From the IMG/VR virus record IMGVR_UViG_3300029708_000226: 64,000 nucleotides of DNA. One strand, given 5' to 3'. The DNA is from a virus. Its lineage: Duplodnaviria; Heunggongvirae; Uroviricota; Caudoviricetes. The notes under the pieces are model-generated. The model was not told the origin of the DNA. It was given only the letters and a program-made list of their open reading frames with translations, and searched no databases. A program made the position numbers and the translations under genes. This document shows positions 6,027 through 51,922 of the stretch, piece after piece. Each line of letters begins with the position of its first letter. Within the stretch, counting starts at the first letter, position 1.

Positions 6027-6357
6027 AATTTTCTCCTATTCTGTTATATATAACTATTATGAAAGATATTTTTTTAAATAACAAAATTTCCCGGAGCGGG
6101 GACTCCGGGAAACGCATCAAAGATAAAAGGGGAATCAGATCTATTTTCATCTGATAATACTATTATAACAGCTTTGAAATTTATTGCAAATTTCTGCACA
6201 GAAATTATTACAAAGAAAAATAAACAAAAATAACAATACAAAACAGTATGTATTTAACAAAACAACTGTTCCATATTGTATTAATTTTAAAAATATGATA
6301 TTTTCGTTATGGCAAAAGTAGATAGATGTTTTTGTTTACGAAAGAGAGGCGAAAATC

Positions 6358-6471
6358 ATGGAAAATAATCATGAAACAAGCGGATCTAATGGACAACCAC
6401 AATCAAATCTAACCGAGCTTCTTTTATTCCTTCTTCTTATTTTTTTAATTCTTGTTCTAATTAAATTCTAA
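6358..6471 (+). CDS. Candidate 37-aa peptide MENNHETSGSNGQPQSNLTELLLFLLLIFLILVLIKF with a hydrophobic C-terminal tail
   Basis: RBS GAGAGG 8 nt upstream of the ATG; a strong hairpin terminator (GGAGATCTACT...AGTAGATCTC) follows at 6487-6515; it is the only plus-strand gene in this neighbourhood. Confidence 0.3.
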   Translation: MENNHETSGSNGQPQSNLTELLLFLLLIFLILVLIKF

Positions 6472-6744
6472 TTTTTCTTCTAAAGGAGATCTACTGTGCA
6501 TTAGTAGATCTCTTTTTCTAATTGAATTCGCCTCTAACCACCATCATAATAGCAAAAAAATATTAAAAAAACTATATTTAATAGCTACAATTTTTTGCTA
6601 CATTATTTGGAAAATGTGCACAAAAAACATTTTTTAATTTTGTATAGTATTTATTTATGTAATGGTTTAATATTTTTTTAAAAAGGTTATAATGATACGA
6701 AAACATATGTTCCGCCGAAAACTAAATTCATTCTTTGAAAGTAT

Positions 6745-7179
6745 TTATTGATTAACAAAAAAATAAACGTCATAAACATCTGCATTTTGATGTGATGAGA
6801 TTTTAAAATATGCCTCGCATATTTTTAAGTAGTCAACTCTCCTTTTGGGAGGAATTGCTATTTCATATCTCGGATAAATGTAACGATACCAAAACAGATC
6901 CAGACACCGGTTTTGTTCGTAATACTCCATCCTTGGTTCAATAATTTGCAGAATTCCGCCTGATTTTAAATATCTGTGGAGACACTGAATCACCTTCGGT
7001 ATATCAGCATGATGTAGTACGTTTTTAAGGCGAAATTCATCAACGGATCCTTCTTGCAATCCAATAATTTCGTTTGTTTCTGTATTGTATACATAATTTA
7101 AATAGGGACCTTGAGTAATATCACATGTTTTATATCCAGGATATGGATTATATCCGCTGCCAAAATCAATTTTAAGCAT
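6745..7179 (-). CDS. Small class-I SAM-dependent methyltransferase-like protein (144 aa)
   Basis: Motif-I-like IDFGSGYNPYPGYKTCDI and LKSGGILQII; tightly linked downstream of the radical-SAM genes. Confidence 0.5.
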   Translation of the reverse strand: MLKIDFGSGYNPYPGYKTCDITQGPYLNYVYNTETNEIIGLQEGSVDEFRLKNVLHHADIPKVIQCLHRYLKSGGILQIIEPRMEYYEQNRCLDLFWYRYIYPRYEIAIPPKRRVDYLKICEAYFKISSHQNADVYDVYFFVNQ

Positions 7180-7188
7180 ACTGCACTC

Positions 7189-7989
7189 CTACGCCAAGTC
7201 GTGGTTTCCTATATCATGGCAGTAATCTTCCCACACAGAATAGACTTTATGGGAATACCGTTCATTAGAATGACAATTCGGTGCAATGATAATATCTGTC
7301 TTTTCGTATCCGGCTTCTTCCGTATCTGCGGATGCGTTTTTATCTCCATGATACCCAAACAGCCCAAATTCTTTTCCCTTCCACTCAAACGTGAAGAAAT
7401 TATGTCCATCACTACGTAATAATTTAGCGCCCATGCCATAAAGCAGATCTTCATAGCTGTCTTTATAGTTTAAATTGTATCTGCCCATAAGATCTTCACA
7501 TACAACCACGCCGATATCATCTGCTAAAATCATATCAACAAGTTCATATAACTTTTCCCCAGTAGACTCCCAAGATTTTGGAAGATTGATGCGTAAATTA
7601 GGCACGTACTTTTTTGCAATCAGTATCTGTTCTCTTCTGGCCTTATATTGTTCTTTAGAAGATATAGAGATTGCCATTTCTTCCAGTCCATTTTCCACTA
7701 AAGCTTTTGTTAATTCTTCAGTTAATTTTGTACCATTTGTTACCAGACAAATTGTATTTACGTATTTATTCACTACTTCGAAATAATCTACGATATTCGG
7801 TAAAAGCAAACTCTCTCCGCCCATAATGGTGGCTCTTTCCAGCATACCTACTTTTTTCATAGTCTCTTCCATTTTTTCAATATCTAATATCTTTTCTCGC
7901 TTCTCCGGCTGAAAGCAAAAATAGCAGTTTTGATTACAATGAAAATTTGTGATAATTCGATACCGGAACACTCTATGATTATGTAACAT
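7189..7989 (-). CDS. Radical SAM enzyme (CxxxCxxC: NFHCNQNCYFCF), 266 aa
   Basis: Start refined to MLHNHRV (GGAGG RBS 8 nt upstream); the hairpin at 8003-8030 separates it from the upstream peptide gene. Confidence 0.75.
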   Translation of the reverse strand: MLHNHRVFRYRIITNFHCNQNCYFCFQPEKREKILDIEKMEETMKKVGMLERATIMGGESLLLPNIVDYFEVVNKYVNTICLVTNGTKLTEELTKALVENGLEEMAISISSKEQYKARREQILIAKKYVPNLRINLPKSWESTGEKLYELVDMILADDIGVVVCEDLMGRYNLNYKDSYEDLLYGMGAKLLRSDGHNFFTFEWKGKEFGLFGYHGDKNASADTEEAGYEKTDIIIAPNCHSNERYSHKVYSVWEDYCHDIGNHDLA

Positions 7990-8037
7990 ATTTTCCTCCA
8001 TAGAAAATGCCCCTGAATGGGGCATTTCTGTTAACGA

Positions 8038-8163
8038 TTACTTATTCTCAGTAATAATAGCTAACTGACCGCATGCAGCTTTTGCAGTAATTTCTGCTTC
8101 AGTCGCAATGGCAACTGCGTAATCATAACCTGCTGCTCTTAACTGATTTGCGATTTTTTCCAT
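8038..8163 (-). CDS. 41-aa peptide MEKIANQLRAAGYDYAVAIATEAEITAKAACGQLAIITENK; candidate substrate or partner of the flanking radical-SAM enzymes
   Basis: GGAGG RBS; sits between two radical-SAM genes with 22-nt and 48-nt gaps; not in the ORF track (<60 aa). Confidence 0.4.
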   Translation of the reverse strand: MEKIANQLRAAGYDYAVAIATEAEITAKAACGQLAIITENK

Positions 8164-8184
8164 GAATTTTTCCTCCTTTATGTA

Positions 8185-12094: not shown

Positions 12095-12157
12095 AGTATT
12101 AATATGACAGATAAAAGGGCGCAAAAGAAAAAGAAGCCCGTGGGCTTCTTTTAAACC
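12095..12157 (-). repeat. 58-bp promoter/terminator module, near-identical to the one at 13383-13445
   Basis: ATTAATATGACAGATAAAAGG(G/A)C(G/A)CAAAAGAAAAAGAAGCCCG(TG/AA)GGCTTCTTTTAA flanks the methyltransferase gene on both sides; a third diverged copy is at 14706-14765. Confidence 0.6.
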
Positions 12158-13382: not shown

Positions 13383-13445
13383 ACATTAATATGACAGATA
13401 AAAGGACACAAAAGAAAAAGAAGCCCGAAGGCTTCTTTTAACTAT
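13383..13445 (-). repeat. Second copy of the 58-bp promoter/terminator module
   Basis: See 12095-12157. Confidence 0.6.
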
Positions 13446-13704
13446 GATATAGCTGTTCAGCAATTTCAAGCAGACAATTGCTGTCAACGCATGTGATTAT
13501 TGCTTGAACAAAACGGGTATATTCTTTTCCTCGATAGATGCACCCTCCAGGCCATCCGTCTTCGAAATTTTCCTGCCCTACGCAGCGATATTCGATTTTT
13601 CTTTGATCCAAGAAATCCTTGACCTTCATCGCTGCGATATTCGGTAAAATACACAACTGTGGTTCATCAGTTTTTATAATATTTATTTTTTCGATATCAA
13701 CCAT
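13438..13704 (-). CDS. Small protein (88 aa) of a three-member paralog family ([23 protein letters not shown]...CLxKIAExL)
   Basis: Paralogs at 46743..47048 and 47021..47347. Confidence 0.5.
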
Positions 13705-13772
13705 ATATTTGTTCCTCCTGATATTTGCATTTTAACATATCTACCTGTATTAGACAAATTTCTGCATAGAAA

Positions 13773-14684: not shown

Positions 14685-14769
14685 AAAGATCTCCTTTGCT
14701 GTTTATGATATTAATATGAAAGATAAAAGAGAGTAAAAGAAAAAGAAGCCTTTTGGCTTCTCTTTCAAA

Positions 14770-18099: not shown

Positions 18100-18723
18100 T
18101 TATTCTCCTCTGTAATATAATGTGATTTCTGTCTGCGGATCTACTTCTGTGCCTGCTTCCGGAGACTGTCTTGTAATCATTCCCATCTCGAATTCATAAG
18201 GGTTTTCTCCGGATTCGTCCTTTAAAATACCTCCGATAGATAAATTATCTTCAATCACTTCGACAACGGCGTCATCGATCGTATATCCGAGATAACTGTT
18301 AACGGTAACTGTATTCTTTTCTTCTATTTCTTCCTGTGGCAGTTCTGTGCTGCTTACAACGATAGTTACAGGAAGGAAAGTGTCTACTGTTTCTCCAGGA
18401 GCAATATCCTGTGACAATACCTCATAAGGGTGTTCTACATCTTCCTCCCAGACGATGTCGTAATATGTTACGCCGGCATTGGTTAATGTTTCTGTGGCTG
18501 CATCAAGTACCATTCCGCATACATCCGGCATAATCACATCTTTTTCAACATATCCTTCTATTTTATCTTCGGACACATCGTTGCCGGAAACGTCGTTACC
18601 TGATACAGATGTTTCTGTGTTTCCTTCGGTGGCTGTCTTTTCATTTCTTATCACCACACCGCAAATGACGGCTGCGATAATACCGATTCCAATCGCGCTA
18701 ACTACGATATTTTTTCTTGACAT
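18100..18723 (-). CDS. Membrane-anchored protein with two extracellular PASTA domains
   Basis: N-terminal TM; two ~65-aa units ending ...QSPEAGTEVDPQTEITLYY / ...QDIAPGETVDTFLPVTIVVS, typical of PASTA. Confidence 0.6.
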   Translation of the reverse strand: MSRKNIVVSAIGIGIIAAVICGVVIRNEKTATEGNTETSVSGNDVSGNDVSEDKIEGYVEKDVIMPDVCGMVLDAATETLTNAGVTYYDIVWEEDVEHPYEVLSQDIAPGETVDTFLPVTIVVSSTELPQEEIEEKNTVTVNSYLGYTIDDAVVEVIEDNLSIGGILKDESGENPYEFEMGMITRQSPEAGTEVDPQTEITLYYRGE

Positions 18724-19325
18724 ATTTGGATCTCCTTTTCTGTTAGCAGTTTTCTCTGTTTCAGAAGATCTACAACAATATCAACATACTTTTTTCGCAA
18801 AGATCCATTTGAAAGAATTTCTTCGATGACGGAAATATCCGTAACAGCTTCCTTATATGGCCGGGTGGATGTCAAAGCATCTAAAATATCGAGAACAGAA
18901 AGGAATTCGCAATACGCTGGTATTTCTCCGTCTTCGAAGTGTACAGGATATCCAGAGCCATCAATCTTTTCGTGATGTAAAAGTGTACACAGGACGACTT
19001 CTTTCGGATAATCCCGAAGCATATGAGCCCCCATTAAAGGATGCTTCTCCATATCCTTTTTTTCTTCCGGAGTATACTGGCTCGGTTTTGTTAGAATTTT
19101 TTCTGATATACCTATCTTTCCGATGTCATGCAGAAGACATCCTGTATAAAATACATTTCCGTCTATGGAAATGAGTTCTGGATATTTTTCTGTGACCGCT
19201 ATGCTGTTCTGCGCTACACGAATGCTGTGATCGTATGTTGTTTTGTCATAATTCTTCAACTGCCGAAGCAGATAAACTGTTTTTTCTTTTAATATGGGAG
19301 TAATCATTATTGTCCCCTTTCGCAA
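18702..19325 (-). CDS. HD-GYP domain phosphodiesterase
   Basis: HD...HDIGK...HP..G and the signature HHEKIDGSGYP. Confidence 0.8.
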   Translation of the reverse strand: MRKGTIMITPILKEKTVYLLRQLKNYDKTTYDHSIRVAQNSIAVTEKYPELISIDGNVFYTGCLLHDIGKIGISEKILTKPSQYTPEEKKDMEKHPLMGAHMLRDYPKEVVLCTLLHHEKIDGSGYPVHFEDGEIPAYCEFLSVLDILDALTSTRPYKEAVTDISVIEEILSNGSLRKKYVDIVVDLLKQRKLLTEKEIQICQEKIS

Positions 19326-19454
19326 AAAATACGGTAAAACAAAGGGGTAAGATGTAAACTCCTATATTTGTTCCATTATTATTATGAAAGATTATTTTTA
19401 ATAACGGAAAATTCTGCATAGAAATACCCGTGGAAGAATCCACGGGTATCTATC

Positions 19455-23549: not shown

Positions 23550-23699
23550 TTTATTTTCCTCCTTGTGTAGTATTTTCTTTTATTATTATGACAGATTTTG
23601 AAAAAATGGATTTTTCTGCACAGAAAAAGAGCCTCTTTTATAAACTTTGCCGTAAAACTACACTCCTTTATGGTGCGCTGTTGTGATTTGTCTTATTTT

Positions 23700-24698: not shown

Positions 24699-24753
24699 AT
24701 TTATCTCCTATTTTACTTATAAAAATTACTCCTTCTCTTATATTATGACGGAT

Positions 24754-25155
24754 TTAGTGAAGTTTGGATTTTTCTGCACAGAAAGATTCTTCGTCCGGAT
24801 ATATTCCTGAAACAGATTCTCTTCTTTTGTAGTAGTATCCATTTTTCTTTCCTTTTGAATTCTTTTTCTTTCTTTTTAGCTGTTCGATAGCCTGCGATTT
24901 CAGATTATTTGGTATCGGAAAAACCGTGACAAGTTCCAAATTTGCAAATATCCAGATCTTCTCTGCGTAGATACGGATATTGTTAGCGGATTCATTACGG
25001 TTGAAAACTTTCGTTATATATGCTTTTAACTGTCCGGTCGCTTCGGCGTGCGTCAGGCCATTCTCAAATGCGATTTTAGCAATACGATCACAGCTTGCTT
25101 TGTTGATTCCACATCGTTCCTGGATGCGGTCTCGTGCATGATCTGAAGTATACAT
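24754..25155 (-). CDS. DUF4258-like small protein (HARDRIQERCGI motif)
   Basis: Start refined to MYTSDHARDRIQERCGI (RBS GGAG); the H-x2-R-x2-ERGI pattern is characteristic of DUF4258. Confidence 0.45.
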   Translation of the reverse strand: MYTSDHARDRIQERCGINKASCDRIAKIAFENGLTHAEATGQLKAYITKVFNRNESANNIRIYAEKIWIFANLELVTVFPIPNNLKSQAIEQLKRKKKNSKGKKNGYYYKRRESVSGIYPDEESFCAEKSKLH

Positions 25156-25259
25156 AAATCTCCTCTCTTCCATTTTATATTCTATTATTATTATGAAAGA
25201 AAACGGCAAACAGCCAAAATTCTACATAAGAAAATGGAGCCGTTTCCGACTCCATTAAA

Positions 25260-30852: not shown

Positions 30853-31067
30853 AATTTTTTTCCTCCACTTGTCTTGGCTTTGTATTCTTATTATGAAAGA
30901 AAAAGCCTCCCGGAAGATATCCGGAAGGCTTATAATTATTTCTTTATCTTCGCTTTCCATTCGACCATGGCATCATAAATAGGATCGTTGTCGTCAATAG
31001 AATTGATCATATTTGAGCGAAAACGGAAAATTTCTGCATAAGAAAAGCGCCATCAAGGCGCCGTTTC

Positions 31068-36681: not shown

Positions 36682-36683
36682 GA

Positions 36684-36757: not shown

Positions 36758-36763
36758 AAGCGA

Positions 36764-36838: not shown

Positions 36839-36841
36839 AAT

Positions 36842-37025: not shown

Positions 37026-37096
37026 TGACGGAACTCGAATCCGCATTTCTGACTTGGCAAGCCAGTGTATTAGCCAGCTATACGACATCTGCATGT
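37026..37096 (-). tRNA. tRNA-Gly (GCC)
   Basis: GCAGATG acceptor, U73; loop TTGCCAA; T-loop TTCGAGT. Confidence 0.6.
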
Positions 37097-37159
37097 GGGA
37101 CAAACGGAGTGCCTGGTTCCATAAGTCCCTGTTTTGTTGTATTACGGATATTTCCGTAG

Positions 37160-37232
37160 CGACCGATGCGGGATTCGAACCCACGTCTCGGGAGTGAAAT
37201 TCCCGTGACCTCGTCCTCTAGTCGAATCGGCC
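37160..37232 (-). tRNA. tRNA-Glu (TTC)
   Basis: Anticodon arm CGGGA-ATTTCAC-TCCCG; T-loop TTCGAAT. Confidence 0.5.
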
Positions 37233-37239
37233 AAATCAA

Positions 37240-37316
37240 TGGAGCATATGGGAATCGAACCCATCTGTTTTTCCTGTTTGCAAAACAGGCGACCACCCCT
37301 TGCAGTCCCATACCCC
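37240..37316 (-). tRNA. tRNA-Ala (TGC) with G3:U70
   Basis: GGGGTAT/ATGCTCC acceptor gives the G3-U70 Ala identity pair, A73; loop TTTGCAA. Confidence 0.65.
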
Positions 37317-37403
37317 ATATAATTAAAAAGACCACTAAACTAAGACAATTTCTTAATCCAGTGGTCATGATTTCATATTTCCAATCTATGCGCGGTTCCT
37401 GTT

Positions 37404-37646: not shown

Positions 37647-37922
37647 GGTCTTTCTTTTCCTTTCTAAAAATTTTTGCATAAAAATACGGAGTCCAACAGC
37701 TAATCTCAGATAGAAAATCTAAGACTCGCGGCAGGCACTCCGTTCATCTACTGATACTATAACACCTACCGGAAGTATTGTCAACATATTTTTATTTCTT
37801 TTTCACTATTATTATGATAGATTTTTTATAAAAACAAAACCTCCCGAGAAATTCCCGGGAGGTCTCAAGTTAAAATAAAGGACCGCCGCTTCCGTGCATA
37901 ACAATCACTCCTTTCTTCACGT

Positions 37923-38598: not shown

Positions 38599-39567
38599 AT
38601 GGAAAAGAAAAATGAACCGAAATTATATCATATCGAAGAAATGGAAGAATATCTCAATTCAATATTACCGGATTCTTCGAACTCTTTTAAATACCTTTAT
38701 CTTAAAAAGCAGATTATGGCACATTTTTCTTTAGCAAGAAATGGCTATACTAATCGCATTTCCTCTTATACTGAAGCCAAAAGAGAAGCTTTAGATAAGC
38801 TTTGTTGTAAAATAGCTGAAGAATATGGAACAACTGAAAAAACATGGGCTCAACTGGCGAAGGAAAATGACATTAATATCTCGACAGTTCAACATTATAT
38901 TAAAAAATACGACCAAGAGCATCCAGGCTATTTTTCTCAAAAACCTAATAGAATAAATGAACATGAAATTATTGAAATGTATTTTGAGAAAAAATATACA
39001 GCCAATGAAATAGCGGAAAAATTAGGGTGTTCCGCTTCTACCGTGTGGCGCGCAATCCGCAGTTATAGAAATATACATAAGGAGTTGGAGACGGACTGTA
39101 GTTTAACAAGAAATTTTTTAAACAAAGAAGATATAGAGATTGCCTGTGCATATCTCAATACGAACAGCACTTATAAAGAAGTGGCTGCAAAGTATTCATG
39201 TAGTATTTCGACTGTCCAGTATTGCATTAAAAAATACAAGGCCGCTACGGCGAAAATGGAAGAAATTTCTCCCACTGTAGATAATAGTAATTTTGTGCGC
39301 TTGTATTTTGTAAAAAATGTTTCCATCGAGCAATTGACGGCCTATGGAAAATATTCCAGGGAAGATATAGAAAATGGTATAAAAGAATATTTGAGCGAAT
39401 TATGTAAAAAATATACGGCTGATGAATTGATTGCGGAGCAGATTATTGAGGATTACATTAATGGTGAAAAAGCACACTCTTTAGCTAAAAAATACCATAA
39501 AGCAACAACAACCGTAACGGAGATCATAGAATTATATAAAAATTCCACACAAAAAGAACCGGGATAA
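38599..39567 (+). CDS. Multi-HTH DNA-binding regulator with four or five tandem xSxSTVxxxIKKY helix-turn-helix units
   Basis: ISTVQHYIKKY, ASTVWRAIRSY, ISTVQYCIKKY, TTVTEIIELYK; plus-strand, divergently placed; AT-rich upstream region with TATGAT; terminator at 39575-39597. Confidence 0.65.
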   Translation: MEKKNEPKLYHIEEMEEYLNSILPDSSNSFKYLYLKKQIMAHFSLARNGYTNRISSYTEAKREALDKLCCKIAEEYGTTEKTWAQLAKENDINISTVQHYIKKYDQEHPGYFSQKPNRINEHEIIEMYFEKKYTANEIAEKLGCSASTVWRAIRSYRNIHKELETDCSLTRNFLNKEDIEIACAYLNTNSTYKEVAAKYSCSISTVQYCIKKYKAATAKMEEISPTVDNSNFVRLYFVKNVSIEQLTAYGKYSREDIENGIKEYLSELCKKYTADELIAEQIIEDYINGEKAHSLAKKYHKATTTVTEIIELYKNSTQKEPG

Positions 39568-41161: not shown

Positions 41162-43222
41162 TTAATTGTGTGTTGATAAACATGACCTCGTTATTTGCAA
41201 TAAAAACTTGCATTTTTCGCATTTCTTACACAAGTCAAAACCTCTGCTCTGTCCTTTGCAAGTACCAACGGCATTCTCTACAGTCGCTTTTTCCGTTGTC
41301 GCATTTATGAAATGACTTCTCTCGTAACATCTCGGTAATCCGCTTTTCCAGAAAGATTCTCTTGCGACACCGGCCTCGTCCTGGCAACCGTAGGTTTCTT
41401 CTACACTCAAAACCACCGCAAAGACAAATTCTTCCTCATTGTAGTGATCTTTAACAGCCCAATCCATCGGATCGTAGTTGTCGAGCAGATGATTTCCCTG
41501 ATGATAGAGACCATAATTATAATGCCGGAGTTCTTCAGGAAGTTCCGAAACCGTAACGTTACATAATTTTGCGAGTTCTTCCGCCGTTCTCGCCTGGAAC
41601 GTCAACACCACGGAAGGTTTCTTGCCGGTAAAATAGCTCTTATAATAAGCTTTTACCCAGTTATTTTTCCCTCTGTGAAATACCTTCGTATAACCATAAA
41701 GACCATTTTCGTAAAACGCATCAAAAGTTCCTTTTTCCATGGGAATTTCGTCGCGGAAACCCGCAAGAATTGTTTCTCTCAAACTTCTCCCAAACATCTC
41801 GGTGATGGTCCTTATTATAGAATTATGGTTATGTTCATAATCCTTTTCTTCCATGTCTGCGATCGCTTTTGCAATATTGTATCTGGCGAGCCAGCTCTGA
41901 TCGTATTTAAGCTCCTTTTCCGTCCGCAGGTCGTTCAGATTTATGGATTCGTATCTCGGAATGATTTTTGTTTTCCAGTCATTTGTTTTACTATTTTCAG
42001 GAAGCAACATAAATTCGTTATCTCTTCCGTCTACGAGATCCATTATTTTTGGATTTATCTTATTAATATATCTCTCGATAAGATAATCGTATAAATGCTG
42101 TGAAGGATGACTGTCATATTCCAACCCATTTGTGTCATCGAGAGTCGGAGTCGTGAGGGTAATTAATGGGATAGTGCCGGCAGCAACGATCTCTTTTCTT
42201 CCGTTGTCTTCCAAACCTGGACAGATAATATTTGCCTTGCAGTAGGATAATTCCGGACAGGATATTTTTTCGTCATAGAATTTTTCTTTGATCAGCTGGA
42301 ACATGTAAACAGTCCAGAAGGCTTCGCACTGATCCATGGATTTCAAAGTGCCGATTTTTACTCTGACGGCATCATCTTCTATGATGTTAGATAGCTCCGC
42401 ATCTGTTTCACTTACACCGTATCGGCTGCCGCCCCACAGATCACTTATATCAATTCCTGAAAGCGACGAATAAGGGAACCAGTTGCCTTCGATACGCCTG
42501 CTCATATCTCTTCCAGGACATCTTGAAAAATTTCTCTGAATCGGATACTTGTGGATGGGCCGATCAGATAAAATATAAAGATTTTCACCGTTTCTGATCA
42601 GAAATGCGAAATAACTTTCATCTATATTTTTTTCATTCCTGATATAACATAGAGATACACCGGTGATGACTCCTTTTGCCGCATAACGAATCACGTCGCT
42701 GATGCTTCTGTACATATAGATTTCGTTGGAAGCTTTAAAGGACGTTTCGTCAAATCTGCCTTTAGCAATCTGATCAAGTTTTAATCCCTTATTAACACAA
42801 TGCTTTGCAGATGTGACAATATCCATGATATTTTCTGCGTTAAGTCTATCGGATTCCAAATCATAGAAATCTAATGCAGATTTTGTATTTCTGATGATCT
42901 CCTCTTCTGCTCCCGTTTCCAGGATTGCCTGATACAATTTTTTGCAATCTTCAGCCAATTCCTGCATTTCTGTATTTAAAATAATATCCATTAAGGAAAC
43001 GGTCTTTTCTTTGATAAATTTCTTGAAATAGATACCAAGATAAGCTTCTGCAAATAATCCAGTCTCATCAATCTGAAGCACCTCTTTGATCTTATCGTCC
43101 ATAACTTTGATGTCGTAATCAGATAATTTCCCGGACAGATTGATTGAAAAAGAAGTTTTTTCTTCACTGGGATCCAATCCCGTGATCTTCACCCATAAAT
43201 TCAGTTTTTCTTTTAATGTCAT
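41162..43222 (-). CDS. Large hypothetical protein (~686 aa) with Cys-rich C-terminus
   Basis: Start refined to MTLKEKLNLW (RBS AAGGAGA); no family recognised. Confidence 0.55.
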   Translation of the reverse strand: MTLKEKLNLWVKITGLDPSEEKTSFSINLSGKLSDYDIKVMDDKIKEVLQIDETGLFAEAYLGIYFKKFIKEKTVSLMDIILNTEMQELAEDCKKLYQAILETGAEEEIIRNTKSALDFYDLESDRLNAENIMDIVTSAKHCVNKGLKLDQIAKGRFDETSFKASNEIYMYRSISDVIRYAAKGVITGVSLCYIRNEKNIDESYFAFLIRNGENLYILSDRPIHKYPIQRNFSRCPGRDMSRRIEGNWFPYSSLSGIDISDLWGGSRYGVSETDAELSNIIEDDAVRVKIGTLKSMDQCEAFWTVYMFQLIKEKFYDEKISCPELSYCKANIICPGLEDNGRKEIVAAGTIPLITLTTPTLDDTNGLEYDSHPSQHLYDYLIERYINKINPKIMDLVDGRDNEFMLLPENSKTNDWKTKIIPRYESINLNDLRTEKELKYDQSWLARYNIAKAIADMEEKDYEHNHNSIIRTITEMFGRSLRETILAGFRDEIPMEKGTFDAFYENGLYGYTKVFHRGKNNWVKAYYKSYFTGKKPSVVLTFQARTAEELAKLCNVTVSELPEELRHYNYGLYHQGNHLLDNYDPMDWAVKDHYNEEEFVFAVVLSVEETYGCQDEAGVARESFWKSGLPRCYERSHFINATTEKATVENAVGTCKGQSRGFDLCKKCEKCKFLLQITRSCLSTHN

Positions 43223-43233
43223 ATTTTTTCTCC

Positions 43234-43752
43234 TTATAAAATACCTGCGAATCTCAATACCTTGTTGCAATCAAGCTCATAAATATGAGAGTCCCAGTCG
43301 TCTCCCGGTTGCGTTTTCTGTACCGCAATCGGACATTTACAGACGGCGTCGAAATTCTTTACAAGCCAGTCATAAACATATTGATTCTGACCATTCCAGA
43401 TATACTCGATATGAGCCGGAATACCAAAAATGGTTTTCATGTCGCGTATGGCTGATGCAAGAACAACTGTACCAATTCCACGGTTTTTATAGCCATCTTC
43501 TGTAAACCATGCAGGAATTACCCAAGTATTTGCATCATTGCTCTTCTTGTGCATCTCGCAGTGGCAGATAATATCATCTCCTGCCTTTGCAATGTATTCG
43601 AGCAATCCATTCTCTTCGTCTAAAAATCCGCAGCAGATAGTGATCCGGCGAAGATTATTTCTTTCCTCAAATTTCTTCAAGGATTTTTCATTTTCTTCAA
43701 ACACTGTTTTATTGTGTTCGCTGTGATCAAAATAATATGTGGATTTTGTCAT
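43234..43752 (-). CDS. GNAT-family N-acetyltransferase-like protein
   Basis: YKNRGIGTVVLASAI resembles the acetyl-CoA-binding motif A (R/Q-x-x-G-x-G/A). Confidence 0.5.
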   Translation of the reverse strand: MTKSTYYFDHSEHNKTVFEENEKSLKKFEERNNLRRITICCGFLDEENGLLEYIAKAGDDIICHCEMHKKSNDANTWVIPAWFTEDGYKNRGIGTVVLASAIRDMKTIFGIPAHIEYIWNGQNQYVYDWLVKNFDAVCKCPIAVQKTQPGDDWDSHIYELDCNKVLRFAGIL

Positions 43753-43986: not shown

Positions 43987-44682
43987 TTAATTTTTTAATT
44001 CCTCGTAATGTTCCGTTAATTCCCCATTCAGCGCTTTTCCATCCTCACCGAACAACATCTTCAACTGGAACGGAAGTCCGATCTCTTTGTCGGAAGCATT
44101 TGTTATAGCTTTTTTAATTTCATCCATGCGTTTGCTGTATTCGCAGCCGGTCTTTTCTTCGGCAATCTTCACCAGTTTTTCCAGGAGTTCGTCAGTGGGC
44201 GTATTTTCCGGTGGATTCATCATCGGTGTCTCCTCTTCCTTTGCTGCAACCGGTTCCGAATCTTCATTTTTCAACTCTTTTACACCTTTCGGTTCAGCTG
44301 TTTTTCTCGGAGTTCTCGGTTTCGATGCTTTTTTATCGGAATTTTTTGCGGCAGCAGCCATGGATAAAAGCTCAATCTCCTGCTCTTTCGCAAAATCCGC
44401 CATATCCCTGGGCACAGAGGAAATAGTGCATACACGCGATTCTTTCCGCTCCTTTAACATCCCGAGAACAAACAACAATGTATCTCTTTTCTCGGGAAGC
44501 GCCGTAGAAAGATCCAGTTTATCATCCGGAATAGGCAGCTGGCGAAGCTTGTTATATTCGCTGATCCGCAGTTCAGTTCCAAGGACTGTGAACTTATCGA
44601 ACATAGACGGGAGTTTTTTGTTTTCTTTAATCAGATCTGATAATTTCTGGATTTCGTCGCTCCAAATAAGCAATGTTGACAT
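43987..44682 (-). CDS. Hypothetical protein (231 aa) with a Lys/Pro/Glu-rich disordered centre
   Basis: ORF. Confidence 0.5.
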   Translation of the reverse strand: MSTLLIWSDEIQKLSDLIKENKKLPSMFDKFTVLGTELRISEYNKLRQLPIPDDKLDLSTALPEKRDTLLFVLGMLKERKESRVCTISSVPRDMADFAKEQEIELLSMAAAAKNSDKKASKPRTPRKTAEPKGVKELKNEDSEPVAAKEEETPMMNPPENTPTDELLEKLVKIAEEKTGCEYSKRMDEIKKAITNASDKEIGLPFQLKMLFGEDGKALNGELTEHYEELKN

Positions 44683-44781
44683 ATGTTATACCTCCTTCTT
44701 TTAATATTATTATGACAGATTTTTTATGGAACGGAAATTTCTGCACAAAAAAGAGCGAATAATACATTCGCTCTTCTCATA

Positions 44782-45445: not shown

Positions 45446-45697
45446 CTATGCCGCACATATTCCGACATAACCACAACCATGTATAACTTTATATCTGTCA
45501 TCTTTCTCAAAACAGAAATCCAGACTTTCTTCGGGACACTCTTCCGGATCAATCCATCCGGTCCGGTTTGCTCGCATGATCGTCCCATCTTCGCACCGCC
45601 AGATAATATCTCCTTTTTCGAAAGTTGTGTCCGTACTACTTTTCGTCACCTTATACACAACATTTTTCTCCATTACTGCTTTTCTCCTGTATTCCAC
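45446..45697 (-). CDS. Hypothetical protein (83 aa)
   Basis: ORF. Confidence 0.45.
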   Translation of the reverse strand: MEYRRKAVMEKNVVYKVTKSSTDTTFEKGDIIWRCEDGTIMRANRTGWIDPEECPEESLDFCFEKDDRYKVIHGCGYVGICAA

Positions 45698-46218
45698 GGA
45701 GCGACAATACCCAGAAGTTTCAAATAAGCATATACTTCTTTATATCCGCCTATCCCGAACATACAAATCTTATTCAGATTTCCGTAGTCGATAATATCGC
45801 CCACGGTTTTGATTCCGGCACGACGAAGAACGCTATAAGTTCGGTGGGAAAATTCGAAATCCTCCAGGGTCAAATTCCGCTTTTCTTCCATAGATAAAGA
45901 TGCGTAGGTTTTCTTTTTCTCGATCCAGTGATTCAAACCGTAGCACAAAAGCTCCGGACGATAGGCACGGCGCATATATGCAATAAAAATACGGATGCGG
46001 TTCGTAACAGTTTCCGGTATGATGCCATCCTCTTCCGCAATCTTTTCAATAGACTCTCCGTACATATAGTGCCTGATAACAGTGTTTGTAATCGTTTCCG
46101 GGACATCAGCGGCGGCATAGCGTAGCGCTTCATCAAAATCCTTACATGGCGTAATATCCTCTTTAAATATTTGACGGTACAATTCTTCCTGCCAGGTTTT
46201 ATTGTATTTCTCTGCCAT
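45673..46218 (-). CDS. Transcription-factor-like protein: sigma-70 region-4-type HTH plus an RNA polymerase alpha-CTD-like HhH domain
   Basis: ESIEKIAEEDGIIPETVTNRIRIFIAYMRR (sigma region 4-like); LEDFEFSHRTYSVLRRAGIKTVGDII matches the alpha-CTD consensus LxELxLSVRSxNCLKRAGIxTVGDL. Confidence 0.6.
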   Translation of the reverse strand: MAEKYNKTWQEELYRQIFKEDITPCKDFDEALRYAAADVPETITNTVIRHYMYGESIEKIAEEDGIIPETVTNRIRIFIAYMRRAYRPELLCYGLNHWIEKKKTYASLSMEEKRNLTLEDFEFSHRTYSVLRRAGIKTVGDIIDYGNLNKICMFGIGGYKEVYAYLKLLGIVAPWNTGEKQ

Positions 46219-46489
46219 TTTCTTCCTCCCCGATCACGTTTCCTCGGATAACATTTTCCTCGGACATCACATTGATCTTTTGCCCACAGTACTTACAGAA
46301 ACGGTCCTCTTTTCCAATCTTATTTTCGCATGCCGGACACTTTCTGACAACAATTTTCTTCCCAGCCCGTTCATATTTGCGAATGATCGGACTTTTAGCC
46401 ACGTCTCTTCCGTTTTTACATTTCAGGATCTTTTCATCAGTAGCGATCCGGATCTGGTCGCTTTCCCAGTCGAGCCCTCTCCAATCCAC
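46199..46489 (-). CDS. Zinc-ribbon protein (96 aa)
   Basis: CPACENK...CKYCGQK. Confidence 0.5.
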   Translation of the reverse strand: MDWRGLDWESDQIRIATDEKILKCKNGRDVAKSPIIRKYERAGKKIVVRKCPACENKIGKEDRFCKYCGQKINVMSEENVIRGNVIGEEENGREIQ

Positions 46490-46653
46490 GCAGCGTACAC
46501 AAAGGCGCGGCCGCCAATGCTCCTGTCCGCGGTTGTGATCATGATCGGCGTGTCTTTCCTCATCTTTTTGATCCGCAGCATTCTCGATGCCGCATCGTAG
46601 AGTTCCTGCAATGTTAAAATATGCGGCTCTACGGGCGAACTATTTTTATCCAT
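46423..46653 (-). CDS. Hypothetical protein (76 aa)
   Basis: ORF. Confidence 0.4.
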   Translation of the reverse strand: MDKNSSPVEPHILTLQELYDAASRMLRIKKMRKDTPIMITTADRSIGGRAFVYAAWIGEGSTGKATRSGSLLMKRS

Positions 46654-46742
46654 AACGAATCTCCTTCTAATACTATTATGAATGATTTTACGGGAAACGA
46701 AAATACCTGCACAGAAAAAGCCGACAATATGCCGGCTTTTTC

Positions 46743-47048
46743 TTAAATCTCGCTGTCATCGATATTTCGCAGTTCTTCCGCTATCTTCAGCAGGCAATCG
46801 CTGTCGATGTATGAAATAACCGCCACGGTATTGCGATATCCGCTTAACTTACCATACTTCCAATAGGCTCCCCATTCGTCGTTGTAATCTTCTTTTCCGG
46901 GGCTTGTCACTTTATATTCAATTTTTCTTTTTTGCAGGAACGGCTCCAGTTTATTCAGCGCTACTCCGGGAAGAAGCAGGTGCTGCTTTTCGTTTCGGTA
47001 TGTAATTTCGGGATTGTACATTACATTACCTTTCTCCCACCGAAGCAA
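46743..47048 (-). CDS. Small protein, paralog family member (101 aa)
   Basis: Similar to 13438..13704 and 47021..47347. Confidence 0.5.
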   Translation of the reverse strand: MLRWEKGNVMYNPEITYRNEKQHLLLPGVALNKLEPFLQKRKIEYKVTSPGKEDYNDEWGAYWKYGKLSGYRNTVAVISYIDSDCLLKIAEELRNIDDSEI

Positions 47049-47347
47049 GGATCATTGGCGCTTACATGAAGCAGGTCTTCTGCGATCTTATGCAGGCATT
47101 CAGTATCGACTTTTGCTACTACGGCGGCGACACCATTGATTCTAGGTCTGCCGCGGTATACGCACCCACCGGGCCAGCCGTCTTCGAATTCACTTTGGGG
47201 AACCGTTCTATATTCAATTTTATTTTCTTCCATAAAAGGAATCAGTTTATTTAAAATTACTCCCGGAACAACGGTAACTTCTTCTTTTTCAGAATATACA
47301 ATTTGTGGATTATACATTTCTGCCTCCTTATTCATTTGATGAATCAA
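47021..47347 (-). CDS. Small protein, paralog family member (start probably MYNPQIVYSE at ~47317)
   Basis: [13 protein letters not shown] motif shared with 13438..13704. Confidence 0.5.
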   Translation of the reverse strand: MIHQMNKEAEMYNPQIVYSEKEEVTVVPGVILNKLIPFMEENKIEYRTVPQSEFEDGWPGGCVYRGRPRINGVAAVVAKVDTECLHKIAEDLLHVSANDPCFGGRKVM

Positions 47348-47390
47348 TTATAATACAAATATTAACGACAGTCAAAATTCTGCACAGAAA

Positions 47391-48459: not shown

Positions 48460-48718
48460 ACATTCATCCTGTTCCATTATTAATATGACAGATAAATATA
48501 AAAGAAAAGCCCGCGGTATCCACGAGCGTTTCTTCATCATTTATCAATTTCATCGCATTCCGCGTATGCGTCATCGATCAATGCCGTAACCTGGCACTTT
48601 TCACAAATACCATAGCAGGAAGCCTCCCGTCTTCAGACTGTGAGGAGGAATGCGTCTTTCTGTGCAGAAATCTGCACGGAACACATAATCTGTCATAATA
48701 CTTATATAAGGAGTATTT

Positions 48719-50185
48719 ATGACAGAATCATATGTTTTGACGCTAAAACTGAATACTTCTCCTGAACAGGATGTATGGCTGAGCCACACTTTCTGGTGTG
48801 GACAGCAGATCTATAACGTTCTCGTGCGGCACTGCAAGAAGCAGCTCCGGAAGTTAATACAGGATCCGGAGTATCGAGATCTTCTGGTTGCGAGGAAGGA
48901 GTCCGGTTTTTCGAAAGCTGACAAGAACCGCATCAATCAGGAACTCGCAGATATCCGCATAGGTTATGGACTTAGTGAATATCAACTGCACGCATATGTT
49001 TCCGTACAGCAGCACAGATACAAGAAATCCATTGACTCTGATGTAGCCCAGAAGATCGCTTCTTCCGTATGGCGTTCTGTAGAGAAGTATCTGTTTGATA
49101 ACGGGAAATGCATTCATTTCAGGAAATACGATGAATTTGAAAGCATGGAGGGTAAGAAAAATACTTCCGGCATGCGGTTTAAAGACGGCCGGCTTCATTG
49201 GCGTGGGCAGGTGATCCAGCCGCAGATCCGGACGGATTATGACCGGAAAGCTCTGAAATCCCGTGTAAAGTACTGCCGTATCCAGAGGAAGCCCGTGGGT
49301 ACGAAATACCACTACTACTTGCAGCTGGTTCTGGAAGGAAAGCCCCCGGTAAAGCATCCGGTCGGTCATGGAACCGCCGGACTGGATATCGGGATCTCTA
49401 CCGCGGCTATCGTGACCAAGGATTCCTGTAAACTGACGGTACTCAGTTCCGATGCAAAAGATCATTCTGCGCAGATCAGGCGGACTCAGAGAGCCATGGA
49501 CCGGAGCAGACGCATCACGAATCCGGATAATTATCTGCCGGACGGCACTGTCCGCAAGGGTGCAAGGAAGTGGATTCGTTCGAAGCACTACAGGAAGCTT
49601 CAGTTCCGCAAGAAGTCCATGGAACGCCGGCATGCCGATGCGATAAATACCGGCCACCACCGGCTTGCGAATGAAATTGCCTCGAAGGCAGATACCGCGT
49701 ACGTGGAAAAGATGTTTTTCCATGGTCTTGCACGGAGATCGAAGTCTGCCACGAAGAAAGCCGATGGCCGGTTCCGGAGCAGGAAGCGGTTCGGAAAGTC
49801 CATAGGCAACCACGCACCGGCGGCATTCCTAAAAATTCTGGAAAGCCGGCTTGCTTCTAGCGGCGGGGAGTTAATTAAGATCGATACCGTAAGCTTCCGT
49901 GCCAGCCAGTACAATCATGTAACGGATGACTACGTCCGAAAGAAGCTTTCCTGCCGGGGAAGTTTTGTTGGCAGCCGTTATGTACAGAGAGACCTGTATT
50001 CGGCGTTCCTGCTAAAGAACAGTAACGACACCGGCACGGCTGCCGACAGACAGAAGTGCATCGACACCTTCCCCATGTTCCTGATAACACATAACGCCTG
50101 CATGGACGCGCTCCTTGCAGAGAACAAGAAATATCCTTCGAGCTTCGGTCTCCGGAGCTACAAATACCATAAACGTAACTGTTAA
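48719..50185 (+). CDS. tnpB: TnpB (IS200/IS605 OrfB-type RNA-guided nuclease)
   Basis: 488 aa; RuvC-I-like GLDIGISTAAIV; Arg/Lys-rich; C-terminal Cys-containing region; preceded by a plus-orientation copy of the cassette promoter motif and the palindrome. Confidence 0.8.
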   Translation: MTESYVLTLKLNTSPEQDVWLSHTFWCGQQIYNVLVRHCKKQLRKLIQDPEYRDLLVARKESGFSKADKNRINQELADIRIGYGLSEYQLHAYVSVQQHRYKKSIDSDVAQKIASSVWRSVEKYLFDNGKCIHFRKYDEFESMEGKKNTSGMRFKDGRLHWRGQVIQPQIRTDYDRKALKSRVKYCRIQRKPVGTKYHYYLQLVLEGKPPVKHPVGHGTAGLDIGISTAAIVTKDSCKLTVLSSDAKDHSAQIRRTQRAMDRSRRITNPDNYLPDGTVRKGARKWIRSKHYRKLQFRKKSMERRHADAINTGHHRLANEIASKADTAYVEKMFFHGLARRSKSATKKADGRFRSRKRFGKSIGNHAPAAFLKILESRLASSGGELIKIDTVSFRASQYNHVTDDYVRKKLSCRGSFVGSRYVQRDLYSAFLLKNSNDTGTAADRQKCIDTFPMFLITHNACMDALLAENKKYPSSFGLRSYKYHKRNC

Positions 50186-50189
50186 TCAT

Positions 50190-50345
50190 GTAAACGGGTT
50201 CGACAGGATCCGGCCGCGTGAAGCACTCGTCGGAGTGCTTGCGGCGAAATTCTGGTTAAGGTACGGCAGCTATAACAAACACTGTTCTGCATAAAAAAAG
50301 ATCCGCTTCCTGACCGTAAAGATCAGAAACCGGATCCGTTGTAAG
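50190..50345 (+). ncRNA. Candidate omega-RNA/reRNA scaffold of TnpB
   Basis: GC-rich stem-loops (GGATCCGGCCGCGTGAAGCACTCGTCGGAGTGCTTGCGGCG...GGATCCG) immediately 3' of tnpB, as expected for IS605-family right ends. Confidence 0.4.
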
Positions 50346-50363
50346 AATTGTCAAGTGATGCTG

Positions 50364-50468
50364 TTATGTACCCGGAACCTGCCAGTCTTTAGACTGTGCA
50401 GAGCTGTCAGAGAATCCGCATAATTTGTCGCGGGCATCCAGCAGCTCGCTTAATTCTTCTCTACTCAT
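50364..50468 (-). CDS. Small protein (~34 aa, MSREELSELLDARDKLCGFSDSSAQSKDWQVPGT)
   Basis: AAGGAG RBS 7 nt upstream; overlaps the right-hand 17-bp repeat. Confidence 0.3.
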   Translation of the reverse strand: MSREELSELLDARDKLCGFSDSSAQSKDWQVPGT

Positions 50469-50481
50469 TCCGATTTTCTCC

Positions 50482-50715
50482 TTATACCCAGGCGATTCCC
50501 TGGAAAATTTCCGGCAGTTCGGTAACATCCGGATGATCCTCAAATTTCGAATTTTCTTCGAAAGGAATGATTTTGATATTCACGCATTCCGGATTAAATT
50601 CCGGTCCGCCGTGATCGATATAAGCGTTCATAACCTTCTTTGCAGCCTCTTCCTGATCCACTGCTGATACGATACCGCGGATGTCTGAGTCAATCACATA
50701 TACGAACATTTTCAT
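50482..50715 (-). CDS. Hypothetical protein (77 aa)
   Basis: ORF. Confidence 0.5.
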   Translation of the reverse strand: MKMFVYVIDSDIRGIVSAVDQEEAAKKVMNAYIDHGGPEFNPECVNIKIIPFEENSKFEDHPDVTELPEIFQGIAWV

Positions 50716-51324
50716 TTATTTTTCCTCCTTGAATTCCTTGACCTTTTCATTTTCGGAATCATCATACTCAATGGATCCGTCCTGCTCTACTCTGTAGGCT
50801 TCTCCCCCGAGCTTTTCAATAATTTTTCTCAGAAGATTATTGACCACCCAGATCTGACTTACGAATCCAGCAACAATGCCGTTCGTTTTTGCCGTGAGGA
50901 TCTGCGCCGTCTTGAGTATATCAATAACATTTTTCTTATCGATCAAATCAATTCCACGTCTTTTCAGCTCTCTCAGCAGCTCTTCGTCAGAAAAATCCCG
51001 GATGCTGCACTCGCTGCCGCACAGATCAACTGCCTGACCGTCTTCGATCAGGAGTACTCCAACTCCGTTCTCATTTGTGTAGTGAACATTCATCTCTACG
51101 TCAATGCCTTCAGAAATAAGCTTATTTGCCATGTTTACGAGTTCTGTGGTATTATCGCCGCCCTCTTCGTATTCAAAATAAATGGCAGCCTTTCCATCAG
51201 TGTTTGAATTGAGAACTTCTTCCTCACACGTTTCTATCAGAGAGGTCATTGTATTGAATGCTTCCACTAACTGTTTTGCATATTTTTTATCTACAGAAAT
51301 TTCACCATCATAATAAGTTAACAT
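50716..51324 (-). CDS. Acidic hypothetical protein (202 aa)
   Basis: ORF. Confidence 0.5.
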   Translation of the reverse strand: MLTYYDGEISVDKKYAKQLVEAFNTMTSLIETCEEEVLNSNTDGKAAIYFEYEEGGDNTTELVNMANKLISEGIDVEMNVHYTNENGVGVLLIEDGQAVDLCGSECSIRDFSDEELLRELKRRGIDLIDKKNVIDILKTAQILTAKTNGIVAGFVSQIWVVNNLLRKIIEKLGGEAYRVEQDGSIEYDDSENEKVKEFKEEK

Positions 51325-51339
51325 ACTTTTTCTCCTTTT

Positions 51340-51420
51340 CTATGCAGTTTACTTTCAATTCCGTCTTCTGACAACCGTAAATGAAAAAACTAATCCCCCA
51401 GCTATGCTGAGGTGAATTCT
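51340..51420 (-). CDS. 26-aa peptide MRKPKKRIHLSIAGGLVFSFTVVRRRN
   Basis: Strong AGGAGG RBS and its own promoter motif (51470-51488). Confidence 0.3.
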
Positions 51421-51922
51421 TTTCTTTGGTTTTCTCATTACGTTTTCCTCCTGTTATCTTTGCTTTCCTTTAATATGAAAGAAAACGAATATCCAAAGAC
51501 ATAAAAATATCCCCGGTCAGCCTGACCGGGGAACGCATCAAAGATAATTGGGGGAAGTCGGTTGTTTTGTTAACCGATGATCATATTATAGCAGATATTG
51601 AAATAAACGCAAATTTCTGCACAGAAATTTTTTAGAGAAAAACTCCGGGGATTCCGGAGTTGATTTCTCTTTTCACCTTTGATGATGATACAGTCGCCAT
51701 CGGTGGTGATATATTTAATTTTCAGATCCAAAATCGTATCCAGTGGTTTGTTTCACCCATTTTTTTCTTGAATCAAATACGGGATCTTTATCGTGTCACG
51801 TTTCCTCCGTGTTATCTTTGCAGATTCCTCTGTATCAGCCATAATACCTAAGCTATAAGGAATTGTCGGATAATCTTTCTTATGTAAGGTTACGTTACAA
51901 AATCATATTGTCCTCCTAATAT

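Follow-up and report, generated by a model that had tools for sequence, protein, structure and literature searches.

A 14-base-pair (bp) palindrome recurs 12 times in a 64,000-nucleotide (nt) stretch of DNA from a Caudoviricetes virus (IMG/VR record IMGVR_UViG_3300029708_000226; the whole stretch is called the window below), where it marks a second class of promoters by lying immediately upstream of the -35 position, at a nearly constant distance from the -10 hexamer. In our reading, to which we give about even credence, the palindrome would be bound by a dimer that touches RNA polymerase in a geometry like that of Mor or of class II activators. A first-pass annotation of the window, made from the letters alone, had proposed an operator or activator site for a dimeric regulator, and this remains the best reading of the element.

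Read in the direction of transcription, the consensus is TTTCT(G/A)TGCAGAAA, with 6+6 symmetric positions around a 2-nt centre (6-2-6). Searching the window with TTTCTGNNCAGAAA at up to one mismatch gave nine matches against 0.34 expected, a number reached by none of 100 shuffled sequences, and a scan allowing three mismatches recovered the remaining sites of the 12. All twelve sites listed by the first-pass annotation exist, within about 10 nt of the positions it gave, 11 of them on the minus (gene) strand and one on the plus strand ahead of the plus-strand TnpB-like gene (48657-48670), as had been described. Every copy is intergenic or lies over a gene's last codons, as at 24771, where the upstream open reading frame (ORF) ends within the site. 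The dyad symmetry ascribed to these promoter-associated sites is present in the arms but not in the centre, since all sites read ...CT(G/A)TGCAG... in the transcription direction, with TG always pointing the same way, toward the -10. The promoter-proximal arm is the better conserved one, with C8, A9 and G10 invariant compared to C3 in 9 of 11 and G5 in 8 of 11 sites, and the most conserved positions of the palindrome are G7, C8 and G10. Two sites, 25219 and 31031, have a 1-nt insertion in the left arm. At seven or more of the 12 sites the TTT run of the palindrome merges with the T-tract of an upstream terminator, whereas the sites at 6191, 47377 and 24771 have no upstream terminator. A thirteenth match (TTTCTGATCAGAAA, 42591-42604) lies inside the ORF 41162-43270, has a different centre and looks like a chance occurrence. 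The motif was absent from the literature that we searched, where a text search gave only unrelated primer sequences. The individual promoters and the genes they drive are listed below, the gap being the distance from the end of the palindrome to the -10 hexamer.

6162..6204, minus strand: palindrome promoter with TTTCTGTGCAGAAA at 6191-6204, a TTGCAA -35-like hexamer, TGTTATAAT and the -10 at 6162-6167, gap 23; it drives a small-RNA-like unit of about 80 nt (~6075-6155) ahead of gene 5574-6026.
13729..13772, minus strand: palindrome promoter with TTTCTATGCAGAAA at 13759-13772, TTGTCT, TGTTAAAAT and the -10 at 13729-13734, gap 24; it drives the 88-amino-acid (aa) gene 13438-13704.
19381..19424, minus strand: palindrome promoter with TTTCTATGCAGAAT at 19411-19424, directly after a terminator hairpin, and CATAAT at 19381-19386, gap 24; it drives the HD-domain gene 18702-19325 and the next genes (SLT and AcrIC5-like, as called in relatives).
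23585..23626, minus strand: palindrome promoter with TTTCTGTGCAGAAA at 23613-23626 and CATAAT at 23585-23590, gap 22; it drives the HPr-like 77-aa gene 23316-23549.
24742..24784, minus strand: palindrome promoter with TTTCTGTGCAGAAA at 24771-24784, over the last codons of the upstream ORF, and CATAAT at 24742-24747, gap 23; it drives the 332-aa membrane-like gene 23700-24698.
25190..25234, minus strand: variant palindrome promoter with TTTTCTTATGTAGAAT at 25219-25234, where the left-arm insertion is joined by a C-to-T change in the right arm, and CATAAT at 25190-25195; it drives gene 24754-~25158.
31031..31046, minus strand: variant palindrome TTTTCTTATGCAGAAA after a terminator and upstream of ORF 30289-30960, possibly a decayed promoter.
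44709..44751, minus strand: palindrome promoter with TTTTTGTGCAGAAA at 44738-44751 after a terminator and CATAAT at 44709-44714, gap 23; it drives the 231-aa gene 43987-44682.
46675..46717, minus strand: palindrome promoter with TTTCTGTGCAGGTA at 46704-46717 after a terminator and CATAAT at 46675-46680, gap 23; it drives an operon of the Zn-ribbon gene 46199-46653, the sigma4-alphaCTD gene 45673-46218 and a 75-aa gene.
47347..47390, minus strand: palindrome promoter with TTTCTGTGCAGAAT at 47377-47390 (...GAAT), TTGACT-17-TATAAT and the -10 at 47347-47352, gap 24; it drives two paralogues of about 90 aa, 47054-47347 and 46773-47048.
48657..48699, plus strand: palindrome promoter with TTTCTGTGCAGAAA at 48657-48670 and CATAAT at 48694-48699, gap 23; it drives the TnpB-like gene 48719-50185 and lies inside the left end of a mobile unit, 48598-50347.
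51585..51627, minus strand: palindrome promoter with TTTCTGTGCAGAAA at 51614-51627, TTGCGT, TGCTATAAT and the -10 at 51585-51590, gap 23; it drives a second small-RNA-like unit of about 80 nt (~51500-51578, terminator 51510-51532) ahead of gene 50716-51324.

In 11 of the 12 window copies, 22-24 nt separate the end of the palindrome from a (C/T)ATAAT-like -10 hexamer, or 21-23 nt when counted to the T of TCATAAT, which replaces the earlier estimate of about 15-20 bp. With the hexamer set at -12 to -7, the palindrome therefore spans approximately -49 to -36 with its centre at about -42.5, start sites being inferred from the hexamer, and it is found just upstream of the -35 position and not, as had been suggested, at it. 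The palindrome itself ends at about -36, and only a conserved 3' extension (T-33, C-31) falls inside the -35 region. The right arm of the 25219 variant keeps the normal distance to the -10. At 31031 no hexamer at that distance makes a convincing -10, the best one being TATGAT at a gap of 19. The placement of each site ahead of TCATAATAAT had to be corrected for four of the 12, because 6191, 47377 and 51614 use TATAAT and 13759 uses TAAAAT. The next six bases downstream of the palindrome read W W T S C A and form a weak -35 at best, and a generic sigma-70 scan of 43.9-51.8 kb found one of five palindrome promoters (47377) and missed the other four, so that canonical -35 hexamers appear to be mostly missing. 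Near-consensus cores do exist, namely TTGACT-17-TATAAT at 47377 and TTGCAA-16-TGTTATAAT at the small-RNA promoters.

The same arrangement recurs in the family of related phages. A scan of metagenome contigs for the palindrome followed at the right distance by TGT(C/T)ATAAT gave at least 119 human-gut stretches (given here as L with a number); the bias from this seed pattern is confined to the palindrome and the -10 and leaves the flanks untouched. A relaxed search of those loci, clustered by flanking sequence, resolved at least 77 distinct contexts; in 67 of these, among the matches listed, the -10 follows after 23 (51 contexts), 24 (14) or 22 (2) nt. In the family alignment, the palindrome is preceded by W W and followed by the same W W T S C A as in the window, by eight unconserved nucleotides and then by AAAA TCTG T, and the sequence of the spacer between palindrome and -10 is not conserved across the family promoters. 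When the central four bases were left open, the matches listed had GTGC 44 times, ATGC three times and GTAC once, and two GCAC cases were artefacts, each being a normal promoter on the other strand; this search thus contained no true reversals, and all real sites in it point the same way. Exceptions to the usual arrangement are two clusters with a reversed palindrome (L196:2263 and L180:20649, described below) and L276:3672, where a single palindrome lies between two divergent promoters.

The palindrome promoters differ from the main promoter class in more than the palindrome. Main-class promoters (TTTTCTKTCATAWTAAT) read TTTTCT(T/G)TCATA(A/T)TAAT directly after terminators, without a -35, and number about 40 on the minus strand of the window (e.g., 12098-12107, 13385-13394 and 14710-14719). 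We compared 243 non-redundant main-class promoters with the 42 palindrome promoters that share the TCATAWTAAT box. G at -14, which completes an extended -10 (TG at -15/-14), rises from 21% in the main class to 79% in the palindrome class, the positions -21 to -18 change from T-rich to an A-tract (A 64-86%), A at -8 increases from 55% to 83%, and -33/-31 are T-rich in the main class versus T/C in the palindrome class. These differences support the second promoter class that had been proposed. A further palindrome sub-type combines TGnTATAAT with TTGCAA or TTGACT (e.g., 6191, 47377 and 51614), so that the palindrome behaves as a module that can accompany either of two core types; it is present on about a quarter of the phage's promoters.

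The main-class box has C at -12 in 95% of the 243 non-redundant copies, and the phage family encodes an RpoD-like sigma factor of 304 aa with regions 1.2-4 (L288:3523-4437), whose region 2.4 reads WWIRQSAMR and whose region 4.2 is canonical. The methionine in this segment occupies the position of T440 in E. coli sigma-70. The retention of C-12, the low share of main-class promoters with TG at -15/-14 (21%) and the presence of an own RpoD-like sigma suggest, as a lead drawn from sigma-70 genetics, that a specialised phage sigma and not the host primary sigma may read the C(-12) box of the main class. The sigma gene itself sits behind a palindrome promoter, and the ORF that follows it (L288:4364-5932) has WGR and PARP-like motifs.

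The genes served by the palindrome form a characteristic set. In the window these are two small-RNA-like units, an operon with HD, PASTA, SLT and AcrIC5-like genes, an HPr-like gene, two membrane-like genes, three paralogues of about 90 aa, the Zn-ribbon/sigma4-alphaCTD operon, the TnpB-like gene and several orphans. Relatives add a Dda/exonuclease V-like helicase, a 665-aa helicase, thymidylate synthase, HU, a ParM-like protein, Cas5c, a PhoH2/PIN protein, a kinase, a Phd/YefM-like antitoxin, the RpoD-like sigma and a transfer RNA (tRNA) array. DNA polymerase and NrdD have main-class promoters instead. Such a downstream gene set is typical of a phage middle class.

Binding by a dimeric protein is implied by the 6+6 dyad, and the fixed position over 67 promoters with diverged spacers, the fixed orientation and the better-conserved proximal arm fit a stereospecific contact with RNA polymerase. 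From these regularities we infer protein binding, a dimer, activation and a timing of expression in the following form. A sequence-specific dimer, most likely phage-encoded, would dock on the palindrome; at -49 to -36 it would adjoin the position of sigma region 4 on one fixed helix face, and by touching RNA polymerase it would aid initiation at TGn(C/T)ATAAT promoters with a vestigial -35. The palindrome promoters would then constitute one co-regulated set, probably delayed-early or middle.

Several observations weigh against activation. No phage binding protein was recognised in family scans or among the roughly 20 first genes behind palindromes, which include no recognisable regulator in Pfam, PHROG or NCBIfam; a 231-aa protein with an HTH-like (helix-turn-helix) N-terminus, behind a palindrome in L219, has no family match. 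TGn is present in most palindrome promoters, and the cores of some come near consensus, so on paper they need no help; as the introduction of PMC4390567 notes, promoters with an extended -10 can do without an activator. The fixed spacing could partly come from promoter modules with a common ancestor or from an operator anchored to the -35, and the -42.5 centre is itself derived from the hexamer. Furthermore, at L196:2263 and L180:20649 a reversed palindrome lies 15 nt from a main-class -10 box and overlaps its -35 region, a geometry that suggests repression.

With cores that appear self-sufficient, a repressor fits as well or better. The main rival is a phage repressor at -49 to -36, with a footprint reaching the -35, that would keep host-readable promoters off, for which a carrier or plasmid-prophage state or an early shut-off could provide the context; we regard this as possible, though not probable. 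It would account for the co-occurrence of the palindrome with the most host-like core features (TGn, TATAAT and a partial -35; 47377), and a repressor acting on the RpoD-like sigma gene behind its palindrome promoter would also silence the main promoter class indirectly. ParM-like and Phd/YefM-like genes, which suggest a plasmid-prophage lifestyle, and the reversed palindromes over main-class -35 regions in some relatives point in the same direction, as does the precedent of the phage P1 C1 and Aca repressors, which govern many promoters via repeated operators. However, in known repressor regulons the operator position varies, usually over the -35, the -10 or +1, whereas 67 of the 77 contexts (again among the matches listed) keep one position that abuts the core promoter without covering it, and overlap with the core is confined to the two reversed-palindrome clusters. 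In addition, steric repression does not require the fixed orientation, and the scanned proteins contain no recognisable repressor gene.

An activating dimer could be part of a larger scheme, which we put forward tentatively: in a two-tier code, the phage sigma would read the C(-12)ATAWTAAT box of both classes, and a family of small dimeric activators at -42.5 would gate about a quarter of the promoters, including that of the sigma gene.

Which protein reads the palindrome is separate from the question of activation or repression. Two proteins of the window had been named as plausible binders, and we consider it unlikely that either of them is the reader.

45673..46218, minus strand: sigma-region-4 + alpha-CTD (C-terminal domain) fusion of 181 aa, assigned from homologue domains and a PDB profile.
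38599..39567, plus strand: multi-HTH protein of 322 aa with four to five tandem three-helix HTH modules in the structure model.

The fusion architecture annotated for the first protein was confirmed via its homologues and PDB profiles. Alone, the protein matches only the Pfam alpha-CTD; it has 166 homologues among 1.84 billion representative proteins (E<=0.001), full-length homologues score for both Sigma70_r4 and RNA_pol_A_CTD, and in PDB the family profile aligns with chains of SigA region 4 and of alpha-CTD. The single-sequence structure model is poor (pLDDT, the predicted local distance difference test score, 52.6), and the searched literature held no mention of a Sigma70_r4 + RNA_pol_A_CTD architecture under those domain names. 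As a palindrome reader, this protein could act as a LuxR/NarL-like HTH dimer on the 6-2-6 repeat while its alpha-CTD-like domain contacts DNA or sigma. Sigma4-like HTH dimers, NarL among them, recognise tight 7-2-7 inverted repeats, and the palindrome promoter of the fusion gene's own operon would allow autoregulation. What disfavours it as a binder is the variation of its gene among strains. L303-L307 carry a 45%-identical allele, with nothing intermediate among the fetched loci, exchanged exactly at the ORF borders within DNA that is otherwise 82-95% identical (95% for the L307 flanks), and the putative recognition helix differs at most positions between the alleles (PETVTNRIRIF versus LATVKLRTDKF); L239 (2613-3005) and L298 hold a truncated, frameshifted remnant of 130 aa. 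Canonical palindromes are retained in all these strains, including one before the sigma4-alphaCTD operon, and a protein that is swapped or degraded while the palindromes stay the same is therefore unlikely to be their reader. The same allele-swap evidence makes it quite improbable that the fusion acts at these promoters as a portable copy of the DNA-binding modules of RNA polymerase.

The multi-HTH protein is conserved, but nothing links it specifically to the palindrome. In relatives it is 74-100% identical, always 322 aa long and invariant in its second HTH, and it shows weak similarity to PHROGs annotated as phage 'late transcriptional activator' as well as to Pfam Mor (PF08765; residues 280-319, 18.8 bits, below the 24.9 cut-off). 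The other scanned proteins and the Pfam lists of related loci contain no match to the Mor/C family (PF08765). The structure model (pLDDT 68), in which the modules are joined by low-confidence linkers, gave no significant structural match in PDB, the upstream region of the gene lacks a palindrome, and a single chain of tandem HTH modules would be better matched to direct repeats than to a tight 6-2-6 palindrome. In some strains, a shorter paralogue of the multi-HTH protein is found sporadically on the opposite strand.

That the reader is instead a host transcription factor whose site the phage has borrowed seems improbable to us. The invariance of the site across strains with widely varying accessory genes and the lack of a recognised phage binder would fit such an origin; however, in a bacterial scan of one genome per species for the palindrome plus -10, the matches listed were scattered single hits in unrelated taxa, with at most one copy per locus. 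To our knowledge the palindrome fits no regulator box, and the CodY, CRP/FNR, LexA and sigma-54 patterns do not match it.

Less probable still, to the point of being very improbable, is a function other than that of a transcription factor site, be it a recombination or shuffling signal, a part of the upstream terminator or an UP-like element read by RNA polymerase. The sites do lie at cassette borders, many merge with a terminator T-tract, and the strains are cassette mosaics. Yet mosaic breakpoints fall 50-110 nt from palindromes or at ORF borders, most cassettes shuffle without any palindrome, and terminator-free sites exist (6191, 47377 and 24771). It is also the distance to the -10 that is fixed, the distance to the terminator being variable. 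A 6-bp stem with a 2-nt loop, too short a loop, cannot form an RNA hairpin, and the invariant G/C core, with G7, C8 and G10 conserved, is unlike UP elements, which are A/T-rich, lie at -40 to -60 and are contacted by alpha-CTD in the minor groove.

Other identities of the motif were considered and rejected. Sigma-54 promoters have GG and GC doublets 10 bp apart (TGGCAC-N5-TTGC), whereas TGTGCAGAAATTTGC lacks the GG doublet, TTGC occurs in only part of the sites, and a sigma-70-type -10 follows at 23 nt. The CodY box AATTTTCWGAAAATT is a 15-bp odd-length palindrome with a single central W, in contrast to the even 14 bp and GTGC centre found here, where the left flank AA(A) is not conserved. For a -35 of the extracytoplasmic function (ECF) type, the 22-nt spacer is too long. 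A restriction or methylation site, a recombination signal and an IS200/605 end hairpin were dropped as well.

Gene content, human-gut relatives of 137-254 kb and only distant GenBank matches mark the window as part of a large, uncultured and widespread gut phage or phage-plasmid. Nearly all window genes are on the minus strand (GC skew and ORF list), and they comprise orphan cassettes, a flotillin, MCP-like, pentapeptide and HD proteins, bacterial RNase A-like proteins and the TnpB-like transposase, along with the following array.

32985-37317, minus strand: array of 35 predicted tRNA genes covering most amino acids.

This array is preceded by a palindrome promoter in L013 (L013:2360) and L307 (L307:8028), and in the window by a main-class promoter at 37808-37817. 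Exact window proteins are indexed in 295 and 442 blocks of a public assembly collection, and the contigs fetched were human-gut assemblies; contigs with window proteins measure 137-254 kb, some being longer and a few exceeding 1 Mb. L002 is 100% identical to window positions 35673-56218, and the relatives' stretches, many of which cover other parts of the genome, are 65-100% identical to the window where they overlap it. Related contigs encode a DnaE-type DNA polymerase, helicases, NrdD, ThyA, HU, a ParM-like protein, Cas5c and the RpoD-like sigma factor. Megablast with 20 kb of the window gave no match in the phage GenBank collection, where the nearest entries by tblastn are unannotated faecal contigs whose DNA polymerase is at most about 35% identical; one of these, L308, contains neither the palindrome nor a similar promoter motif. 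In IMG/VR, the exact 17-mer returned L013 as the sole true relative, the other 52 matches being chance occurrences in coding sequence, and no relatives came from looking for loci there by protein, be it the sigma4-alphaCTD fusion, the multi-HTH protein or a helicase. The ribosome-binding sites read AGGAGG, which makes a Firmicute the likely host. ParM-like actin and Phd/YefM-like antitoxin genes stand behind palindrome promoters (L203:4415-5602; L207:1649), and these genes together with the contigs above 1 Mb make a plasmid-prophage or integrated lifestyle possible. Cassette mosaicism is evident among the strains.

The small-RNA-like units of about 80 nt occur in the window (6075-6160 and 51495-51585, both on the minus strand) and in relatives (L013:6600-6690, L180:11552-11640 and L190:2840-2925). 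They consist of a 5' hairpin with two compensatory pairs, a conserved, unpaired UUCCCC..UUAUCUUUGAUG and an own terminator, and each is followed by a main-class promoter for the next gene. From their sequence, the units look like a phage small-RNA family whose C-rich seed is possibly anti-Shine-Dalgarno. The paralogues of about 90 aa (13438-13704, 47054-47347 and 46773-47048; L208:436 and L191:967) share the motif ..KIEY..V....F.DGW, have no family match and always stand behind the palindrome promoters with the most host-like cores. The Zn-ribbon gene (46199-46653, minus strand) is split into two ORFs of 76 and 96 aa in the window as opposed to one 151-aa ORF in relatives (L001:9565-10020), either by a one-base frameshift or by a sequencing error.

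The TnpB-like gene encodes 488 aa (phrog_506) within the mobile unit 48598-50347 on the plus strand, whose structured 3' segment, 50191-50347, resembles a guide (omega) RNA. At L004:160-433, at a different site and in the opposite orientation, the same palindrome promoter is fused directly to this 3' segment without tnpB. L004 also has three copies of CGTGAATTGAAA spaced 55-64 nt apart (L004:656-786), which resemble the 3' ends of type I-C CRISPR (clustered regularly interspaced short palindromic repeats) repeats, and the last of them abuts a truncated copy of the palindrome promoter. A Cas5c (type I-C) gene stands behind a palindrome promoter at L185:2916-3632, and the phage may carry CRISPR-Cas parts.

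Together, the predicted regulon comprises more than 65 promoters, with helicases, ThyA, HU, sigma, tRNAs, TnpB and its guide RNA, small RNAs, Cas5c and anti-defence cassettes. The motif sorts accessory cassettes into expression classes from the letters alone, gives a handle on the expression programme of a common, unstudied gut phage and can serve as a probe for fishing out the regulator.

Among known systems, phage Mu offers a close parallel: at the promoter Pm, which has a -10 and no -35, a dimer of Mor occupies a 16-bp element that contains two inverted repeats of 5 bp and has its centre at -43.5 (PMC4390567). In both cases, a compact inverted-repeat element (here 6+6 in 14 bp, at about -42.5) lies roughly one helical turn upstream of the -35 in promoters with a recognisable -10, and marks a class of phage promoters that is temporal in Mu and probably so here. 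The -35 is poor or absent at many of the present promoters too, but 47377 has TTGACT and the small-RNA promoters have TTGCAA. The two systems differ in that Mu has the activators Mor (for Pm) and C (for the late promoters) while no Mor/C protein exceeds the threshold among the proteins scanned here, in the number of promoters (dozens per genome compared to one for Pm or four late ones), and in the likely Firmicute host, the TGn of most promoters and the own RpoD-like sigma of the present phage.

Class II activation, as by CRP/FNR at -41.5 or lambda cI at OR2/PRM, likewise has a dyad at a fixed distance by the upstream edge of the -35. The single position and helix face that define this class are also found here, with a gap of 22-24 over 67 promoters among the matches listed, and class II promoters such as galP1 also combine an activator site with an extended -10. 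The half-sites differ, those here being arranged as 6-2-6, about 8-9 bp from centre to centre, in contrast to 10-11 bp for CRP/FNR/cI, and the sequences are unrelated.

The T4 MotA class drives replication, nucleotide-metabolism and tRNA genes, a gene set similar to the present one, and in T4 middle promoters, too, a phage box added to a host-type -10 defines the class. However, the asymmetric MotA box takes the place of the -35, with its centre at -30, whereas the palindrome stands at -42.5. With the P1 C1 and Aca repressors the palindrome shares the use of one site in many copies that guards anti-defence and replication promoters, with autoregulation possible; their operators overlap the core promoter at varying positions, while the position here is fixed and upstream of the core. 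Dyad sites near -42 by which a class of phage promoters is set apart are a well-known kind of element, found here in an unstudied virus, and while the palindrome leaves the understanding of phage transcription control unchanged, it adds one well-defined case in a group of gut phages in which none was known.

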